Below, in pieces: positions 44,628-53,584 of a stretch of 64,000 nt of DNA. Numbering within the stretch: the stretch's first letter is position 1; every line of letters begins with the position of its first letter. The stretch is from positions 12,733 to 76,732 of the forward strand of contig CAMOSQ010000001.1 in the NCBI GenBank assembly GCA_946624985.1, in the 5' to 3' direction. This DNA is from an uncultured Bacillales bacterium. Lineage in GTDB: Bacteria; Bacillota_I; Bacilli_A; RF39; UBA660. A program made the position numbers and the translations under genes. Under the pieces are notes generated by a model. The model was not told the origin of the DNA and ran no database searches. It saw only the letters and a list, made by a program, of their open reading frames with translations.

Positions 44628-45497
44628 ATGAGACTTAGTTATGATTGGAAAGATTATAAATTAATTGATGCTGGAAATGGCGAAAAATTGGAGAGTTGGA
44701 ATGGCGTTATATTGAGACGTCCTGATCCTCAAGCTATGTGGCCCGTTAATAATGGAAGTGATTGGAAGCATGTTGATGGTTTTTATCATAGAAGTGATAA
44801 AGGTGGAGGATATTGGGATTTTTATAAAAAAATAGATGATTATTGGACTGTTAGTTATAGGAATTTAACTTTTAAGGTTAGTCCTACTAATTTTAAACAT
44901 ACTGGATTATTTCCTGAGCAGGCTGTTAATTGGGATTTTATGATTGATAAGATTAAGGGTGCTGGTAGACCTATAAAGATTTTAAATTTATTTGCTTATA
45001 CTGGTGGTGCGACTATGGCATGTAGTAGTGCTGGTGCTTGTGAAGTAGTTCATGTTGATGCTAGTAAGGGTATGGTTTCATGGGCTAAAGAAAATATGGA
45101 GTTATCAGGTTTATCTAATAATCGTATTAGATTTATTGTTGATGATTGTTTGAAGTTTGTAATGCGTGAGGCTCGTCGTGGTAATAAGTATGATGCAATT
45201 GTCATGGATCCTCCAAGTTATGGAAGAGGACCAAATGGAGAGGTTTGGAAGTTTGAGGATAATTTATATAATTTAATTAATGCTTGTATGGATATATTGT
45301 CTGATAAACCTTTGTTCTTTTTAATTAATGCTTATACTACTGGTATTTCTAGTACTGTTTTGTATAATATTTTAAAGACTACGCTTGTTCCTCGCTTTGG
45401 TGGCGTAGTTGATGCTGATGAAGTAGGGCTTCCAATTGTTAATAATGATTTGATTTTACCTTGTGGTATTTGTGGAAGATGGCAGTCAAATGATTAA
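44628..45497 (+). CDS. Class I SAM-dependent (rRNA large-subunit type, RlmI/K-like) methyltransferase
   Basis: LNLFAYTGGATMA (motif I), VHVDAS, VMDPPSYGRGP. TGATATAAT promoter at 44603-44611 makes ATG 44628 more likely than 44613. Confidence 0.75.
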   Translation: MRLSYDWKDYKLIDAGNGEKLESWNGVILRRPDPQAMWPVNNGSDWKHVDGFYHRSDKGGGYWDFYKKIDDYWTVSYRNLTFKVSPTNFKHTGLFPEQAVNWDFMIDKIKGAGRPIKILNLFAYTGGATMACSSAGACEVVHVDASKGMVSWAKENMELSGLSNNRIRFIVDDCLKFVMREARRGNKYDAIVMDPPSYGRGPNGEVWKFEDNLYNLINACMDILSDKPLFFLINAYTTGISSTVLYNILKTTLVPRFGGVVDADEVGLPIVNNDLILPCGICGRWQSND

Positions 45498-47281: not shown

Positions 47282-47373
47282 TTTTTTTGATAGTTAATTC
47301 TTTTTTTTTTATGATGTGTAAAGAAAAAGTTAAGATAAAAATAAAAATAGTACTATATATTTTTATATTTTTT

Positions 47374-47382
47374 TGATATAAT
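47374..47382 (+). promoter_or_regulatory. Extended -10 promoter element (TGATATAAT) for the 47412-49737 operon
   Basis: TGnTATAAT at 47374-47382, 30 nt upstream of the ATG. Confidence 0.4.
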
Positions 47383-47411
47383 ATTATTTAGAATAAGATA
47401 GGGTGGAAATT

Positions 47412-48101
47412 ATGAATAGTGTTAGTGATATTTTATCTAGTTTACGTGATAAATTAAATAATGTTATTAGTGAATATAATGATTCTATTTCTAAAATTGA
47501 AGAGGATGAAAAATTTATTCAAGTTTTAGGAGATGTTGTTAATTATTGTAAAAGTGATTGTTTGCTTTTACCTTTTTATGATGAATCTATTTTAAATGAT
47601 GTTATTGATCATATTTTTCCATCTGGTAATGAAATTAAAAAAATTAAAACTGCTAAGTATTTAATTGAAGCAAGTAAAAGTGTTGATAAGGAAAAGTTTT
47701 TACAATATAATGATTCTGTAAAGGATTTAGAGAAAATATGTAAAAAGTTAAATAGTGAATATGAAAAAATGTTATCTAATGAAAAACTTAAAACTGATAA
47801 GAAAAATTTTAATAATAAAATTTCTGAGTATACTAGTTTTTTAAATATTGTTGGGGATGATGAGTTTTCTGGACTTATTTCTGATATTGATTTGTTCCAA
47901 GAAATCATTGATTTATGTAAGTTTAGTGATGAAGAAATTGATTCTTTGTTAAGTTTAGCTATTAAATGTAATTTAAAATATTTGGATGATAATGGAATTA
48001 TTGTTGATGATGTTCATTCTGATATTGTTGACATGAAGAATGAAAATGATAAGATGCAGGAAGAAATTAAAAATTTGAGTGATCTTCTTGGTAATGAATA
48101 G
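47412..48101 (+). CDS. Acidic helical protein, unknown function (P1, 229 aa)
   Basis: ATG 47412 (track start 47403 is GTG). D/E/K/N-rich, no TM or signal peptide. N-terminus resembles that of P2. First gene of a coupled three-gene operon. Confidence 0.6.
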   Translation: MNSVSDILSSLRDKLNNVISEYNDSISKIEEDEKFIQVLGDVVNYCKSDCLLLPFYDESILNDVIDHIFPSGNEIKKIKTAKYLIEASKSVDKEKFLQYNDSVKDLEKICKKLNSEYEKMLSNEKLKTDKKNFNNKISEYTSFLNIVGDDEFSGLISDIDLFQEIIDLCKFSDEEIDSLLSLAIKCNLKYLDDNGIIVDDVHSDIVDMKNENDKMQEEIKNLSDLLGNE

Positions 48102-48109
48102 GAGGAATT

Positions 48110-49429
48110 ATGGAACTTAAAAATTATTTGGTTGAGTTGCTTTCTAATATTATTCATGATAGATTACAAGAATTATCGTCTATAAAGGAAGATATTAAGA
48201 AGAGTGAAGATTATGTTAAGGTTAAGGAAATGCTTAGTGATGTCAATAATATTGTTAATGTTAATGATGATGAATTAAGAAATCTTTTGTCTGTAATTAC
48301 TGATGAAGATACTGTTTCTGAAATTTTATCTAATATTGATATGATAAGAATAGTTGTCAATGGTATTAATGATGGATTGGATTTATCTTTGGACGATTCT
48401 CAAAAGGAACTAGTTAAGGGCGTATATGAAATTATTGATAATTATTGTAGTGATTTGGATAAGAAAAATACTGAAACTAAAGCATATCTTGAAGATTTTT
48501 TGTCAAAATGTGAAGAGTTAAGTCAAGAAATTGGTACTGGTGTTGTTAGAAATATTGATGTTCTTGATGAAATTTTTAGAGAAAATGATGTTTCTTTAAA
48601 GGATATTATTAAAGTTAAGTATGAAATTCTTCGTAACAATAGTAAAAATTATAATATGGATTTAGATGGTCATGTTAAGGAAGAAGTTAAGTTGCGTCTT
48701 TCTTTGAAGAAGATCAATATTGATTTTGATTCATATAATGAGAGTGAAAGAAATGTTTTGATTAACTATTGTAATGTTTCAAATGCTGATGAGTTAATTG
48801 ATTATATTTCTTCTAATAATTTAAGTATTGATAATTCTTTATTATTAATTTTATTGTTGTTTTCTAATGTTTCTAATTTTAAATCTATTGTGGATGTTTC
48901 AAATAAGTATAATTTTAATTTTACTGAATTTTACAAAATCCCTGGTGTTTTTATTTCAAATGAGATGTCTGATAATTTAGTAAATGTATCTTCAAATGAT
49001 AATTTTGAGTATTTAAAATATATTGGTTCTTATTTTGAATTATTTAACGAAAATATTACTATTTTAGAAGAAAATAATTTATCTGTTGGTGATATATTTA
49101 ATTGTAATTGTTTGGCTTTAATTATTCCTGATATTTCTAAGAATATTACGATTTTATCTTCTTTAGATTTACCTAGTGAGGTGTTTAGTGTTGTTGTTAT
49201 TAATCCATTCTTAGCTACTTCTATTTCTTCTTTTGAAGAATGTGGATTAAAGGATTATTTAAGTTCGAATCCTTTACGTCTAACTACTTCTTATTATAGG
49301 CTTAGAAATATTTATTCTAATATAATAAGTGCTAGAAAGAATGGTAAAATTATTTTTAGGAGTTTAAGTGATAAGAAAAATTATTGGTTAGCTAAGCATA
49401 TTACAAGTGATAGTTCTGAGGTGGTTTAA
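48110..49429 (+). CDS. Acidic helical-repeat protein, C-terminal half mTERF-like (P2, 439 aa)
   Basis: AGGAGG RBS 8 nt after the P1 stop. Roughly 30-aa repeats ending in ...IPGVFISN, ...VINPFLATS, ...SSNPLRLTTS recall the mTERF xxPxLLxxS repeat. Confidence 0.6.
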   Translation: MELKNYLVELLSNIIHDRLQELSSIKEDIKKSEDYVKVKEMLSDVNNIVNVNDDELRNLLSVITDEDTVSEILSNIDMIRIVVNGINDGLDLSLDDSQKELVKGVYEIIDNYCSDLDKKNTETKAYLEDFLSKCEELSQEIGTGVVRNIDVLDEIFRENDVSLKDIIKVKYEILRNNSKNYNMDLDGHVKEEVKLRLSLKKINIDFDSYNESERNVLINYCNVSNADELIDYISSNNLSIDNSLLLILLLFSNVSNFKSIVDVSNKYNFNFTEFYKIPGVFISNEMSDNLVNVSSNDNFEYLKYIGSYFELFNENITILEENNLSVGDIFNCNCLALIIPDISKNITILSSLDLPSEVFSVVVINPFLATSISSFEECGLKDYLSSNPLRLTTSYYRLRNIYSNIISARKNGKIIFRSLSDKKNYWLAKHITSDSSEVV

Positions 49430-49737
49430 TGGATTTTTTAAAGAAATATGGTATAACTGATGATGATATTAATATTATTAAGAATAATAATTATGAAAGT
49501 GTTATAAATACTATTATATTTAATCAGGTTAATGTTTGTTCTGTTATAGATTATTTTGTTTCTATTGGAATTGAGAATTCTACTTTAGCTCAGATGTTAT
49601 CAGATAGATTGGATTTATTTTTGAAGTCCGTTGATGATATTAAAGATTCTTTAGAAAAGTATAATGTTTCTAATATTGTCACAATTATTAATGATGATAT
49701 TGCTAATTTAAAGTTTTTGGATATGAAAAGGGATTAA
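49429..49737 (+). CDS. Small mTERF-like helical-repeat protein (P3, 102 aa)
   Basis: TAATG overlap with P2. DFLKKYGITDDDINIIKNN... and IDYFVSIGIENSTLAQMLSDRLDLFLKS fit the mTERF-type L..lGi....i..ml pattern. Confidence 0.55.
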   Translation: MDFLKKYGITDDDINIIKNNNYESVINTIIFNQVNVCSVIDYFVSIGIENSTLAQMLSDRLDLFLKSVDDIKDSLEKYNVSNIVTIINDDIANLKFLDMKRD

Positions 49738-49747
49738 ATCCCTTTTT
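49726..49747 (+). terminator. Rho-independent terminator of the P1-P3 operon
   Basis: aaaaggga-ttaaa-tccctttt plus t; overlaps the stop codon. Confidence 0.65.
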
Positions 49748-49794
49748 ATCTTGTAAAAAAATTACTTTTATGATATAGTTATGTTGGTGATATT

Positions 49795-50127
49795 ATGAAT
49801 AGAAAAGAAGAAGCTATAAAGTTAATAAATAAGAAACTAAATAAGAATTCTTTTTTATCTTATATTGAGATTGCTGAAATTACAGGTTATCATCCTAAGT
49901 ATATTTTAAAGTTGAAAAAAGAGATTATTAATGGAAGTATTAGGATTGAGCATGGAAATAAAAATCGTAAACCTGTTAATGCAATGAGTGCTGAAGAGAA
50001 GAATATGATTATTGGTTTGTATAAGAAAAGTCATGCTAGTATTAGAAAGTTTTGTAGATTTTATGGAACTCGTAGTTATTCTTGTGTTTATAATGTTATT
50101 AAAGAATATGAAAATAGTTTAAAATAA
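49795..50127 (+). CDS. Stand-alone HTH protein resembling the N-terminal DNA-binding module of an IS (DDE/rve) transposase
   Basis: 110 aa. SYIEIAEITGYHPKYILKLKKE (HTH) then IEHGNKNRKPVNAMSAEEKNMIIGLYKK, a pattern I associate with Firmicute transposase N-termini. No catalytic domain follows. Confidence 0.5.
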   Translation: MNRKEEAIKLINKKLNKNSFLSYIEIAEITGYHPKYILKLKKEIINGSIRIEHGNKNRKPVNAMSAEEKNMIIGLYKKSHASIRKFCRFYGTRSYSCVYNVIKEYENSLK

Positions 50128-50144
50128 TACTTTGGGGGGATATT

Positions 50145-50948
50145 ATGAATTATAAATTTAATAAAAAAGTTTTTTCTATTTTGGGTTCTGGTTTTATTTT
50201 ATTATCGTTACCTGCTTGTGATAAGAGTAAATCTTATTCTAGTTCTAAATCTGATTCTTATGTTGTATTAAATGATTTGGATGCTGTTTCATCTAATACA
50301 ACTAGTACAAGTTCTACGACTAGTACTAATTCTATAATAGTTAATTCTACAACTGGTTCTTCTACATCTACTTCAACTATTTTTGAAACTAGTTATGAAT
50401 TTGATTCTGATACATATACATCTAGTGAATATATAGATGATGATTCTAATAATTCTTTTACATTAACTACTTATGATTGTTCTATATTAGATTATTTTAA
50501 TACATTAGGTAATAATATTAAAAATAATTTTAATTCTGATGATTTTCTTGAAATGGGTAAAAAATATTTTGTTTATTGTGTTGATTTTTTATTTTATGAT
50601 GGTGAAATAAAAGGTGTTAGTTTTAGTGATTTGACTGATAGAGCAAAAGAACAGTTATTGCTTGATATTACTACTATCGATTCTTTAATTTGTTCTAAGT
50701 ATCCTAATTATAAGGAAAATATCAAGGAAGGATTAGGAACTGCTTATAATAAAGCTAGTGAAATTATTAGAGAAGGTAGTAAAGATATTAGAAATTTTTC
50801 TAAAGAGAAATTAGGCGAAGAAAACTATGCAAAGATTGGGGAGTATAAAGATTTGTTTATTGATACTGCTTTTGGTGATTGGGATGATTTTGTTGATATT
50901 TTAGGTAAAGGAAGGCAAAAGGTAAAAGATTGGTATGAAGGACTTTAA
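50145..50948 (+). CDS. Lipoprotein with Ser/Thr-rich linker, unknown function
   Basis: Signal peptide ending in lipobox LSLPAC; poly-S/T tract; C-terminal ~150-aa domain. GGGGGG RBS. Confidence 0.7.
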   Translation: MNYKFNKKVFSILGSGFILLSLPACDKSKSYSSSKSDSYVVLNDLDAVSSNTTSTSSTTSTNSIIVNSTTGSSTSTSTIFETSYEFDSDTYTSSEYIDDDSNNSFTLTTYDCSILDYFNTLGNNIKNNFNSDDFLEMGKKYFVYCVDFLFYDGEIKGVSFSDLTDRAKEQLLLDITTIDSLICSKYPNYKENIKEGLGTAYNKASEIIREGSKDIRNFSKEKLGEENYAKIGEYKDLFIDTAFGDWDDFVDILGKGRQKVKDWYEGL

Positions 50949-50990
50949 TAGTCTTTTTTTATTATGAAAAAAACAGATAATTAATCTGTT
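50938..50990. terminator. Back-to-back terminators between convergent genes
   Basis: aaggact-ttaat-agtcttt plus T-run for the + gene. aacagat-aatta-atctgtt (50972-50990) with a T-run on the minus strand for the esterase operon. Confidence 0.5.
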
Positions 50991-52291
50991 CTTCTTTGAC
51001 TTAATACCCAATCTATAATTGTTGTAAATCCGTTTCCTATATTTGTGTCTTCTAGTACTACGTTTGGCATAAAAGCATGATCCTGTGGAGCAGGGTATTC
51101 TCTTACGTATGCAGTATATCCTGCATTTTTTAATTTTTTTATAAAGTTTGGTATTCCTGTTCCTGGATACTTTTTTCCATTTGCATAGGTGTCAGATGCT
51201 CCATAGAATCCATATGTTGGAACAGTTTTAAATCCTTGTACATTTGTAATTCCTTTTTTTGCGATTAGGACTGCGCTAGAAAAATATGTTGGATTATTAT
51301 TGACTAACGTAGGAATTATTTCTGCTCCTAAGCTATATCCCCAAATACTAATTCTTTTTGTATCTATATTGTTATTTGGGTTTTGGATTTCTTGATTTAT
51401 CATTCCCATTACATCTGATGCACTCCATCCATTACTTGATGCAATTTTTGGGGCATGTGGTATTAATATATAGCAGTTATATTCCACATTTTTATCTTCT
51501 ATTTCGTGTAGGAATCCTCCTCCTCCGTCTGCTTTAAGTGTTGAATATCCTCCACCTGTTCCACCGGTACCATGTAAATATACTATTAATGCGGCTTTGT
51601 TTCCATCTATTCTTTTTGGTACATAAAGATAGTAACTATATCCATTTATATATGATTTTTGAATTATATTTTGATTAGTAAGTGCATTTGGGTTATCAAT
51701 TATTGTTCTTGCGATTGCGCCTCCTCCTGCAGATGCAATTGTATTTGTATATGCTGGTACTCCTGTATCTCCTGTATTTGCGTAGTCTATTTTTTCTTCA
51801 TTTTTATATTCATCTTTAAGATTACAATTGGAATCATATTTATGTTGTTCGCTTAGTAATCCTGGACAAAGAGTAGTAGCTTCGCTATCAATTTGCTCGC
51901 ATTTTTCTGGATGAATTAGACAGTATACGCAATTTTTTAGTTCGCTTTCTGTTCCAACTGATATGTTTATTATAAAGTTTACTATTGATATAATAAAGAA
52001 TATTATTACTGCTGTTATTATGTTTGTTATAAATTTCTTTTTTGCTTTGTCTAGACTATCATTTACATTTCCCGAGATAGTAACTTTTAAGAATGAGATT
52101 AATCCGGAAAATACAAGTAGTAGAGGTACAATAATTCTGATTATTATGTATATTGTTGATACCATTGTCCCAATTACTGTTGGAAATTTTTTGTCTGCTC
52201 CACATACTATATATTCTTTAGCATTTATTATTGTTGGTGTTAGTGGTGTAAGTAAAACGATGATTTTTTTTAGTATTGATTTTTTTTTCAT
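50981..52291 (-). CDS. Membrane-hairpin-anchored extracellular alpha/beta-hydrolase (esterase), paralog A
   Basis: Signal peptide, 2 TM with K-rich loop, Cys-rich linker (CVYCLIHPEKC...C...C). Hydrolase: YLHGTGG, GYSLGA (GxSxG), FYGASD, QDHAF. RBS AGAGGTGA in the 12-nt gap after paralog B. Confidence 0.75.
   Translation of the reverse strand: MKKKSILKKIIVLLTPLTPTIINAKEYIVCGADKKFPTVIGTMVSTIYIIIRIIVPLLLVFSGLISFLKVTISGNVNDSLDKAKKKFITNIITAVIIFFIISIVNFIINISVGTESELKNCVYCLIHPEKCEQIDSEATTLCPGLLSEQHKYDSNCNLKDEYKNEEKIDYANTGDTGVPAYTNTIASAGGGAIARTIIDNPNALTNQNIIQKSYINGYSYYLYVPKRIDGNKAALIVYLHGTGGTGGGYSTLKADGGGGFLHEIEDKNVEYNCYILIPHAPKIASSNGWSASDVMGMINQEIQNPNNNIDTKRISIWGYSLGAEIIPTLVNNNPTYFSSAVLIAKKGITNVQGFKTVPTYGFYGASDTYANGKKYPGTGIPNFIKKLKNAGYTAYVREYPAPQDHAFMPNVVLEDTNIGNGFTTIIDWVLSQRRTD
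51671..52291. repeat. Direct repeat copy 1 (5' third of esterase paralog A)
   Basis: Offset exactly 1293 bp from copy 2. 51803-52244 matches 53096-53537 with no mismatch that I can see; a few substitutions at both ends. Confidence 0.9.
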
Positions 52292-52303
52292 ATTTCACCT
52301 CTT

Positions 52304-53584
52304 TTAGTTACTTCTTCTTTGAGATAGTACCCAGTCCATAATATTTGTAAAACCATTACCTATATCTTGGTCTACCATTAGTTTTTCCATTACATGGTCA
52401 TGGTCTACACCTTGATATGCTTTTATATATGCTTTATATCCTGCATTTTTTAATCTATTTATTAATCCTGGTGTGTTTGTGTTTGCGTAGCCGTCTGCTG
52501 TTCCATAAAATCCGTATGTTGATATTTTATCAAATCCTGTTAATGATACATAGCTTGGGTTTCCACCTCGTGCAAGTATTACTGCACTTGAAAATGTATT
52601 AGGATTGATGTTTACCATTCCAGGCACTGCTTCTGCTCCAGCACTATATCCCCATATACTTATTCTATCTTTATCTATTCCTAGATTTTCTATTTCTCTA
52701 TTCATAATTTTTGTAACAGCACTAGTGTTCCATCCTGACCTATCATGCTTTTGAGGCATTAGTATATAAGCATTAAATTCCATTCCTTTTTCAATGTATT
52801 TTGCGAATCCGAATCCAGTTGCCATTAAATTATATCCATATCCACATTCTCTACCATTACCATGTAAGTATACTATTAGAGCTGGTTTATTTCCATCTAT
52901 TTTTTTTGGTACATATACATAGTAACTGTATCCACTTTCAACATCTGATTTTGTGATTATGTTTTGATTTGTAAGTGCATTTGGATTATCTGTTATTGTT
53001 CTTGCGATTGCGCTTCCTCCTGCAGATGCGATTGTGTTTGTATATGCAGGTACTCCTGTATCTCCAGTATTTGCGTAGTCTATTTTTTCTTCATCTTTAT
53101 ATTCATCTTTAAGATTACAATTGGAATCATATTTATGTTGTTCGCTTAGTAATCCTGGACAAAGAGTAGTAGCTTCGCTATCAATTTGCTCGCATTTTTC
53201 TGGATGAATTAGACAGTATACGCAATTTTTTAGTTCGCTTTCTGTTCCAACTGATATGTTTATTATAAAGTTTACTATTGATATAATAAAGAATATTATT
53301 ACTGCTGTTATTATGTTTGTTATAAATTTCTTTTTTGCTTTGTCTAGACTATCATTTACATTTCCCGAGATAGTAACTTTTAAGAATGAGATTAATCCGG
53401 AAAATACAAGTAGTAGAGGTACAATAATTCTGATTATTATGTATATTGTTGATACCATTGTCCCAATTACTGTTGGAAATTTTTTGTCTGCTCCACATAC
53501 TATATATTCTTTAGCATTTATTATTGTTGGTGTTAGTAGTGTTAGTAAAATAATTAATTTTTTTAGTATTGATTTTTTTTTCAT
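52304..53584 (-). CDS. Membrane-hairpin-anchored extracellular alpha/beta-hydrolase (esterase), paralog B
   Basis: First ~205 aa nearly identical to paralog A. Hydrolase half diverged: YLHGNG, GYSAGA, FYGTADG, VDHDHV. Confidence 0.75.
   Translation of the reverse strand: MKKKSILKKLIILLTLLTPTIINAKEYIVCGADKKFPTVIGTMVSTIYIIIRIIVPLLLVFSGLISFLKVTISGNVNDSLDKAKKKFITNIITAVIIFFIISIVNFIINISVGTESELKNCVYCLIHPEKCEQIDSEATTLCPGLLSEQHKYDSNCNLKDEYKDEEKIDYANTGDTGVPAYTNTIASAGGSAIARTITDNPNALTNQNIITKSDVESGYSYYVYVPKKIDGNKPALIVYLHGNGRECGYGYNLMATGFGFAKYIEKGMEFNAYILMPQKHDRSGWNTSAVTKIMNREIENLGIDKDRISIWGYSAGAEAVPGMVNINPNTFSSAVILARGGNPSYVSLTGFDKISTYGFYGTADGYANTNTPGLINRLKNAGYKAYIKAYQGVDHDHVMEKLMVDQDIGNGFTNIMDWVLSQRRSN
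52964..53584. repeat. Direct repeat copy 2 (5' third of esterase paralog B)
   Basis: See copy 1. Identity stops near codon ~207, and the remaining ~700 bp of each gene are only moderately similar. Confidence 0.9.

Follow-up and report, generated by a model that had tools for sequence, protein, structure and literature searches.

What do three acidic proteins encoded side by side in uncultured gut bacteria do, and are they bacterial relatives of the mitochondrial transcription termination factors (mTERF)? The question is raised by a 64,000-nucleotide (nt) stretch of DNA from an uncultured Bacillales bacterium of the RF39 lineage (contig CAMOSQ010000001.1, hereafter "the window"), in which three consecutive genes, here called P1, P2 and P3, occupy positions 47412 to 49737. 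An original prediction, made from the sequence alone, had taken this triad for a tightly coupled operon of acidic helical-repeat proteins with mTERF repeats, and had suggested that it might be a mobile module targeting nucleic acids. We find that the triad is an operon carried on the chromosome and passed on vertically within a narrow clade of uncultured gut Bacilli. It probably works like, and is distantly related to, a helical-repeat protein of the mTERF type, although we do not file it as a member of that family.

A conserved operon of three coupled genes

All three genes lie on the + strand, at the positions first predicted: P1 at 47412..48101 (229 amino acids, aa, counted from the ATG of the open reading frame, ORF, call), P2 at 48110..49429 (439 aa) and P3 at 49429..49737 (102 aa). 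The P1 stop codon is separated from the P2 ATG by 8 nt, and the ribosome-binding site of P2, AGGAGG (48100..48105, +, read from the sequence), overlaps the P1 stop TAG; the P2 stop and the P3 start overlap in TAATG. The order P1-P2-P3 is kept in every relative examined, with gaps of 8–15 nt or with overlaps. In-frame fusions of P1 and P2 were found in at least 16 sequence clusters (669–682 aa), and these are not read errors, since to arise from the arrangement in the window they would have to lose a stop codon and also shift the spacing by one base. An apparent fusion of P2 and P3 is represented by one 542-aa protein (P0102), encoded on a single contig. Because of these natural fusions and the conserved translational coupling, the gene arrangement suggests that the three products work together physically, as a complex. 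Synteny, coupling and fusions likewise bear out the earlier view that the triad is a single functional unit.

Each protein has roughly 95–166 homologues (95 for P1), all of them from metagenomes or metagenome-assembled genomes (MAGs) and labelled only "Bacilli bacterium." Word-indexed searches reached this close clade only and gave the homologues neither a Pfam domain nor a name, and searches of Protein Data Bank (PDB) sequences with single proteins or narrow profiles returned nothing meaningful. A narrow-pattern scan of genome contigs recovered 3 species. In the relatives, the triad is preceded by genes for a methyltransferase (PF10672), an RluA-type pseudouridine synthase and an AI-2E permease, and is followed by a gene for a 110-aa helix-turn-helix (HTH) protein. 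Compared with relatives L001 and L003, P1 is 45–50%, P2 51–59% and P3 67–76% identical, while the neighbouring proteins are 66–87% identical; for ribosomal protein L13 of L003 the figure is 91%. From this comparison, the clade is narrow, and P1 and P2 outpace the surrounding genes in their evolution, with P3 at the local average. P3 is the most conserved of the three subunits.

To define the reach of the family, the P1-P2 alignment was used in an exhaustive profile search of 1.84 billion representative proteins, which gave 40 matches. Outside the close clade these comprised P2-like proteins of 517–620 aa (E = 1.5e-14 to 3e-4) together with P1-like proteins, and the distant P2-like proteins are 16–22% identical to P2 over the full length. 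The distant operon consists of a P1-like gene (190–640 aa), at times a 66–86-aa ORF, a P2-like gene and a 94–98-aa P3 homologue that overlaps or abuts P2. This order was found at every locus with readable context except L028, which is cut by the contig end, and P3 is present in all distant versions. In one lineage, where the P2 identities are 30–43%, the operon stands between gpr-spoIIP and znuA/yidD/rnc; in another it follows asnS and a CitMHS transporter; and single loci place it after mscL and after rpmG-efp. None of the proteins of the distant operons carries a name or a Pfam domain. At about 20% identity, the triad is thus present in two or more further metagenomic lineages, each with its own fixed chromosomal site. 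Neighborhood conservation had been put forward in the original prediction as a check on a functional system, and the triad does co-occur in order across relatives and distant lineages. The family is rare, known only from metagenomes and, within each lineage, passed on vertically at one fixed site.

Signals for expression were then read around the operon. An extended −10 promoter element, TGATATAAT (47374..47382, +, read from the sequence), lies 30 nt 5' of the P1 ATG, and TGnTATAAT also occurs 28–30 nt 5' of that ATG in relatives L001 and L004. A generic promoter scan returned 31 matches versus 28.1 expected, i.e., chance level in this AT-rich DNA (about 24% G+C); the claim that the operon has a promoter element of its own stands on the conservation of TGnTATAAT. 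The ribosome-binding site of P1, AGGGTGG (47400..47406, +), is 5–11 nt 5' of the ATG at 47412. Initiation at a GTG at 47403 would lengthen P1 by three residues, but the ATG is the likelier start because the N-termini of homologues, MDSV.., align to MNSV... At the 3' end, a terminator-like hairpin (49723..49749, +) has a 12-bp stem and a loop formed by the P3 stop codon TAA, with a folding energy of −14.1 kcal/mol (z = −3.55). In relatives the equivalent place is likewise taken by a hairpin, though its sequence differs. The "clean terminator" of the original prediction is thus retained as a hairpin, although a consensus terminator scanner made no call there. P1-P2-P3 are flanked by a conserved promoter element and a terminator hairpin, and, as read from these signals, form one transcription-unit-like operon.

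A further conserved block was seen about 40–60 nt 5' of the −10 element, reading GTCAATAAAAAGTTAAG in relatives L001, L003 and L004 and GTGTAAAGAAAAAGTTAAG in the window (47300–47345); it could be a candidate site for a regulator. Farther upstream, the methyltransferase and RluA-type ORFs overlap by 35 nt (45463–45497) in the mechanical ORF list, and the start of the RluA gene is placed differently by gene callers in relatives (414 or 381 in L005 and L007). One short contig (L010, JAGKUT010000148.1, 2790 bp) carries a P2 homologue of 58% identity and is filed in an "Actinomycetes bacterium" MAG, an assignment that is probably a binning error.

The distant versions also carry additions that are absent from the window. 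The distant P2-like proteins (P0353-P0372) have an extra C-terminal domain of about 120 residues, foreign to the window clade, with the motif Y.FDG..ISR.KV.R...L...G......LLYA.T.N.I..EE. (columns ~600-700 of alignment A7); compared with the central unit of P3, this domain aligns weakly (E = 0.036–0.086). Distant P1 proteins of 490–640 aa (L014:5266-6992, L017:5302-6998, L026:6001-7832, L013:4054-5985) share a conserved C-terminal domain of about 110 residues that P1 of the window lacks, with the pattern ..YL....G...F..D.K......Y......L..L..G.......G......R...I.Y.....D.I.V.G.., and in some lineages the long P1 is followed by the 66–86-aa ORF, which is HTH-like. By eye, this pair was read as a RelE/ParE/Gp49-like toxin domain with a HigA-like ORF, a reading left unsupported by Pfam, NCBIfam and PDB searches; P0374 alone matched ParE_toxin, at E = 0.02. 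The idea that the long-P1 extension is a paralogue of the C-terminal half of P2 was set aside as well, there being no signal (E = 0.37).

Predicted folds and the probable relation of P3 to mTERF

As first predicted, all three proteins are acidic, with isoelectric points (pI) of 4.45 for P1, 4.53 for P2 and 4.35 for P3 and net charges of −21, −28 and −7, respectively. No transmembrane helix was found in any of them, the maximum 19-residue Kyte-Doolittle score being 1.68, compared to 3.26 in the neighbouring permease. AlphaFold2 was run, with family alignments, on the natural P1-P2 fusion P0030 and on the P2-P3 fusion P0102. The resulting models have a mean predicted local distance difference test (pLDDT) score of 80 and 76 and a predicted template modelling (pTM) score of 0.51 and 0.46, respectively. 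Both are entirely helical, in agreement with the earlier call of helical-repeat proteins. P1, P2 and P3 are soluble, acidic proteins, modelled as all-helical.

The likeness between the N-termini of P1 and P2, which had been noted from the sequence, extends over the whole domain. In the AlphaFold2 models, the helices of P1 are about 44, 6, 11, 15, 50, 10 and 16 residues long, and those in the first ~190 residues of P2 are 42, 6, 11, 22, 48, 10 and 17 residues long. Using alignments that include the distant relatives, hhalign matched P1 residues 9–196 to P2 residues 5–184 over 183 columns (Prob 97%, E = 4e-11); with the close families only, the E value was 0.048. On the former alignment, P1 and the N-terminal half of P2 are paralogues. 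The P2 N-terminal domain (P2N; residues 1–195, 48110..48694, +) is modelled as a long-helix bundle with a pLDDT of ~75–83. A DnaD/DnaB-type pair, considered from the similar sizes and the paralogy, was dropped, since there was no Pfam or NCBIfam match and the models are all helical.

The C-terminal domain of P2 (P2C; residues 196–439, 48695..49429, +) is modelled as an alpha-solenoid of short helices, spanning residues ~200–415, with a pLDDT mostly above 90. This is the best-scoring part of the model and contains about 6–7 units whose helices start 26–36 residues apart. In sequence, the halves of P2C align weakly (E = 1.7e-4), and another internal repeat signal has E = 8e-5. P3 consists of three helix-turn-helix units in the model, its helix starts being spaced as in P2C, and its units 1 and 2 align with E = 7e-4. 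Between P3 and P2C the alignment reaches E = 0.015 only, with NVCSVIDYFVSIGI aligned to NADELIDYISSNNL. The ~30-residue units originally proposed for P2C and P3 therefore fit the modelled helix spacing, while their support in sequence is weak. The hallmark of P2C is F-E-E-C-G-L..Y...N-P-L-R-L, and E377, Y383 and N345 of P2 are invariant or nearly so among the distant relatives. The P2 tail (residues 391–439) is conserved and basic, with a net charge of +5 to +6, and is the sole basic patch. Across the wide family, the invariant positions hold L, G, I, F, N, D, E or Y, and none holds K or R. In the alignment of P2 and P3 homologues that includes the P2-P3 fusion, the last ~15 residues of P2 are misaligned over the start of P3.

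We then asked whether the repeats are those of mTERF. The Pfam mTERF model (PF02536) is the best match of P3, with 20.4 bits (E = 2.7e-4), a score below the gathering score of 23.1, and 28 of 39 close P3 homologues likewise have it as their top family at E ≤ 0.1 (best E = 3.6e-5). None of the four distant P3 homologues tested singly matched it. When a profile of 15 diverse P3 homologues (A10; 29–40% identity between lineages) was run against 177,635 PDB sequences, the best match was human MTERF3 (3m66_A; E = 0.0043, 20.6 bits), in which residues 19–81 aligned with P3 residues 14–74. Because the Pfam match and the MTERF3 profile match are two partly independent results, we consider it on balance probable that P3 is distantly related to the mTERF motif. 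No such signal came from P2: with HMMER, 0 of 56 members of the P2 family matched Pfam mTERF, and neither the P2 profiles nor a narrow P3 profile found an mTERF among the PDB sequences.

Structural comparison gave neighbours short of significance. Foldseek searches of both models against the PDB returned nothing at E ≤ 0.001; the queries were whole multi-domain models, which reduces sensitivity. The top neighbour was the transcription activator-like (TAL) effector dHax3 (E = 0.08). MTERF1 was found at E = 0.9–3.2 with a target-normalised template modelling (TM) score of 0.25–0.35, and MTERF4 at E = 6.3 with a target-normalised TM score of 0.42–0.43 and a root-mean-square deviation of 6.3 Å over 212 columns. 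By eye, NPFLATS and ECGL..Y...NPLRLTTS of P2 resemble the P-x-x-L-x-x-S / L-G-L pattern of mTERF, and distant P2 homologues retain N-P/x-S-R-L. The mTERF motif has hydrophobic heptads and, at its position 8, a conserved proline (PMC11417379). Proline is missing from P3 of the window; in some of the distant P3 homologues, K-P-x-L-F stands at the equivalent position. Nor do the proteins show the basic surface expected of mTERF, with pI values of 4.35–4.53, net charges of −7 to −28 and no invariant K or R. In all, the triad fails formal tests of mTERF membership (the Pfam cut-off, the significance of structural matches and a basic character), and mTERF is its best but sub-threshold match. The repeat assignment made originally is thus upheld as the best match of P3 in Pfam and PDB profile searches and goes no further for P2 or for the folds.

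It had also been said that mTERF repeats are almost unstudied in bacteria. This needs qualifying, since pTERFs, a group of prokaryotic, mTERF-like tandem-repeat proteins that bind DNA, were described in 2024 in Nucleic Acids Res (PMC11417379). Could the P2C-P3 solenoid similarly wrap nucleic acid, in the manner of MTERF1, pTERFs and TAL effectors, so that the triad would act as a regulator or terminator that recognizes specific DNA or RNA sequences? The best sequence match of P3 is mTERF, the top Foldseek neighbours are DNA complexes of a TAL effector and MTERF1, and DNA is bound at nanomolar affinity by the pTERFs of Bacillota MAGs (PMC11417379); in addition, an HTH gene adjoins the operon, or a small HTH-like ORF lies within it in distant lineages. 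However, the net charges of the three proteins are all negative (pI ~4.4), no K or R is conserved family-wide, the structural matches are all non-significant, P2 lacks an mTERF signal, and the repeats are too diverged for a modular reading code. Direct, sequence-specific binding by the solenoid is accordingly a possibility that we rank second and regard as rather doubtful, and the original description of a nucleic-acid-binding solenoid is weakened by the acidity and by the lack of family-wide conserved basic residues.

Candidate roles of the triad

The explanation that we rank first, if tentatively, is that the triad forms a complex serving as an adaptor or binding platform in gene expression, i.e., a protein or nucleoprotein adaptor. 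Such a complex would be soluble, acidic, non-enzymatic and all-helical, with three subunits. P1 would pair with its paralogue, the N-terminal bundle of P2, and P3 would extend or cap the P2C solenoid, creating a helical-repeat binding surface. Its likely ligands would be RNA, the ribosome or a nucleoid-associated partner, and its role would be loosely analogous to the assembly-factor function of MTERF3 and MTERF4. MTERF4 acts with NSUN4 as a ribosome-assembly factor. The complex would be neither a sequence-reading DNA binder nor a mobile or defence module. A binding platform is the likeliest option because no enzyme family is detectable: the proteins matched no catalytic family in Pfam, NCBIfam or the PDB. 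Nucleic acids and nucleoproteins are candidate ligands because of the analogy with mTERF proteins, and an adaptor ranks above direct nucleic-acid binding because the net charges are negative and K and R are missing from the invariant residues.

Several results weigh against this platform. The acidity of all three proteins, with invariants that are hydrophobic or N, D or E, makes direct contact with nucleic acid doubtful; mTERF is sub-threshold for P3 and undetectable for P2; and Foldseek offers no match at its significance limit. With pTM values of only 0.46–0.51, the arrangement of the subunits is a proposal. Finally, P1 and P2 have diverged more quickly than the neighbouring genes (45–59% versus 66–87% identity), a pattern shared with conflict genes.

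The absence of enzymatic motifs from acidic long-helix bundles and solenoids would also fit a scaffold made of protein only, acting in division, sporulation or envelope biogenesis and unconnected to nucleic acids. Inheritance of the triad appears vertical, and distant versions adjoin gpr-spoIIP or spoIVB, both points in favour of a scaffold. The neighbours nonetheless vary by lineage (rplM-rpsI, efp, asnS, spoIIP), and no similarity was found to a known cytoskeletal or sporulation family. We rank a scaffold of this kind third and regard it as unlikely.

Next to the triad stands a gene for a basic protein. The HTH_28 protein (49795..50127, +; 110 aa, pI 9.8; Pfam HTH_28, E = 5e-7) is encoded behind its own promoter-like site and is taken here as genomic context of the operon. 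It is a single-domain protein, syntenic and 72–75% identical in relatives L001 and L003. In L003 and L004 its gene directly follows P3; in L001 and L002 a minus-strand gene intervenes. The "transposase-like HTH gene" of the original prediction is thus a conserved single-domain HTH_28 gene. Since a conserved, basic HTH gene adjoins an acidic triad, the triad might be a decoy or anti-regulator, either mimicking nucleic acid or sequestering a basic DNA-binding protein such as this neighbour. Distant operons in which a small HTH-like ORF lies between P1 and P2 are in line with such a role, as is a match of one distant P3 homologue to the DNA-mimic family DMP19 (Pfam, E = 0.016), but that match is single and at noise level. 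Moreover, in L001 a gene intervenes between the HTH gene and the triad. A decoy function, which would require a putative interaction with a protein of this kind, stands fourth in our ranking and seems improbable to us.

The original prediction had the triad open an accessory island and proposed a role in regulation, defence or anti-defence. In fact, relatives keep synteny for the triad and for the HTH gene behind it, with the triad at 45–76% identity; the variable stretch begins 3' of the HTH gene, and the triad lies outside it. No integrase or transposase flanks the operon. P2, P3 and the distant P2-like group had no relatives in IMG/VR, GenBank phages or plasmids by tblastn, and a Foldseek search of the BFVD with one model gave no match at E ≤ 0.001, the viral matches being tape-measure proteins, i.e., generic long-helix noise. 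PADLOC returned one weak match for P3 (CRISPR-T, E = 6.8e-4), found in only 3 of 15 family members, and none for P1 or P2; PHROGs gave weak, inconsistent matches only. A mobile defence, anti-defence or toxin–antitoxin-like conflict module would account for the fast evolution of P1 and P2, for the rarity of the family (1.84 billion proteins yielded only 40 clusters at 50% identity), for the by-eye RelE/Gp49-like end of distant long P1 proteins with a small HTH-like ORF next to it, and for the variability between relatives 3' of the HTH gene. Against it stand the syntenic, fixed positions in three lineages, the lack of flanking mobility genes and of viral or plasmid relatives, the inconsistency of the PADLOC matches, and the fact that the RelE-like reading is unsupported by Pfam, NCBIfam and the PDB and that P1 of the window lacks the domain. 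We rank a conflict module last, as very improbable, and the mobile or defence module proposed at the outset is not borne out.

The variable stretch has features of its own. Positions 50145–53584 contain an ORF of 267 aa that is lipoprotein-like and, on the minus strand, two paralogues in tandem (436 and 426 aa) whose first ~190 residues are almost identical; these ORFs matched no family. Relatives L001 and L003 carry feoA-feoB in place of these genes. Across the window, GC skew is strong and uniform (0.3–0.47 per 2 kb) and nearly all genes are on the + strand; its only dip, to 0.03–0.13, is at 50–54 kb, over these two minus-strand genes, and coincides with the variable stretch.

More ambitious than the adaptor ranked first is a bacterial, three-subunit machine of mTERF type, its solenoid divided between P2 and P3 on a duplicated bundle, acting on rRNA, ribosome assembly or transcription in uncultured Bacillota, or, in a variant, a nucleic-acid mimic that would control the neighbouring HTH regulator. 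This we hold to be a speculative proposal with little probability at present.

Known systems and significance

Set beside the human reference structures MTERF3 (PDB 3M66), MTERF4 (4FP9) and MTERF1 (3MVA), the triad appears to share the build of its repeats. As modelled, P3 has about three helix-turn-helix(-short helix) units of ~30 residues with an L..hG(I/L)... pattern, and P2C is modelled as a short-helix solenoid with P-x-x-L-x-x-S elements (NPFLATS, NPLRLTTS), for which MTERF1 and MTERF4 are among the top structural neighbours. It differs from mTERFs in that two polypeptides would share the solenoid, which is joined to a duplicated bundle of long helices (P1 and P2N) that is foreign to them, and in that the genes form a bacterial operon, whereas an mTERF is a nuclear gene for an organelle protein. 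It is also strongly acidic. Organellar mTERFs are generally basic.

Closer in their host are the pTERFs, which, like the triad, have helical repeats resembling the mTERF motif, occur in Bacillota, come from gut MAGs only and are far in sequence from eukaryotic mTERFs (PMC11417379). They are, however, single proteins with 3–11 regular tandem units (cluster name TR_35) that bind specific DNA at nanomolar Kd (PMC11417379). The units of the triad are highly diverged, with internal repeat E values of 1e-4 to 1e-2, and its proteins are acidic and number three; pTERF1 (MBQ3414883.1) was compared by description only. The TAL effectors dHax3 and PthXo1 are likewise alpha-solenoids of short helix pairs and are the best Foldseek neighbours of both models, but at E = 0.08–2.8, TM scores of 0.14–0.21 and about 8% identity. 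Unlike TAL effectors, the triad has no 34-residue near-identical repeats and no repeat-variable diresidues, and it is acidic. For the proposed three-subunit architecture of a duplicated bundle with a split solenoid, we found no described counterpart.

The proteins of the triad belong to families that have neither a Pfam or NCBIfam model nor a named member and that are known only from metagenomes, and their operon order and translational coupling have been kept across lineages in which P2 is only about 20% identical. A plausible-looking "defence island" call has been removed in the process. With three small, soluble proteins, the triad offers a defined target for structural and interaction work. 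If the link between P3 and mTERF holds, it would join pTERF among the few prokaryotic mTERF-like families and would bear on the origin of organellar mTERF; and if the three-subunit machine of mTERF type proved true, the mTERF fold, supposed to be specific to eukaryotes, would gain a root among prokaryotes and a multi-subunit architecture that is new.

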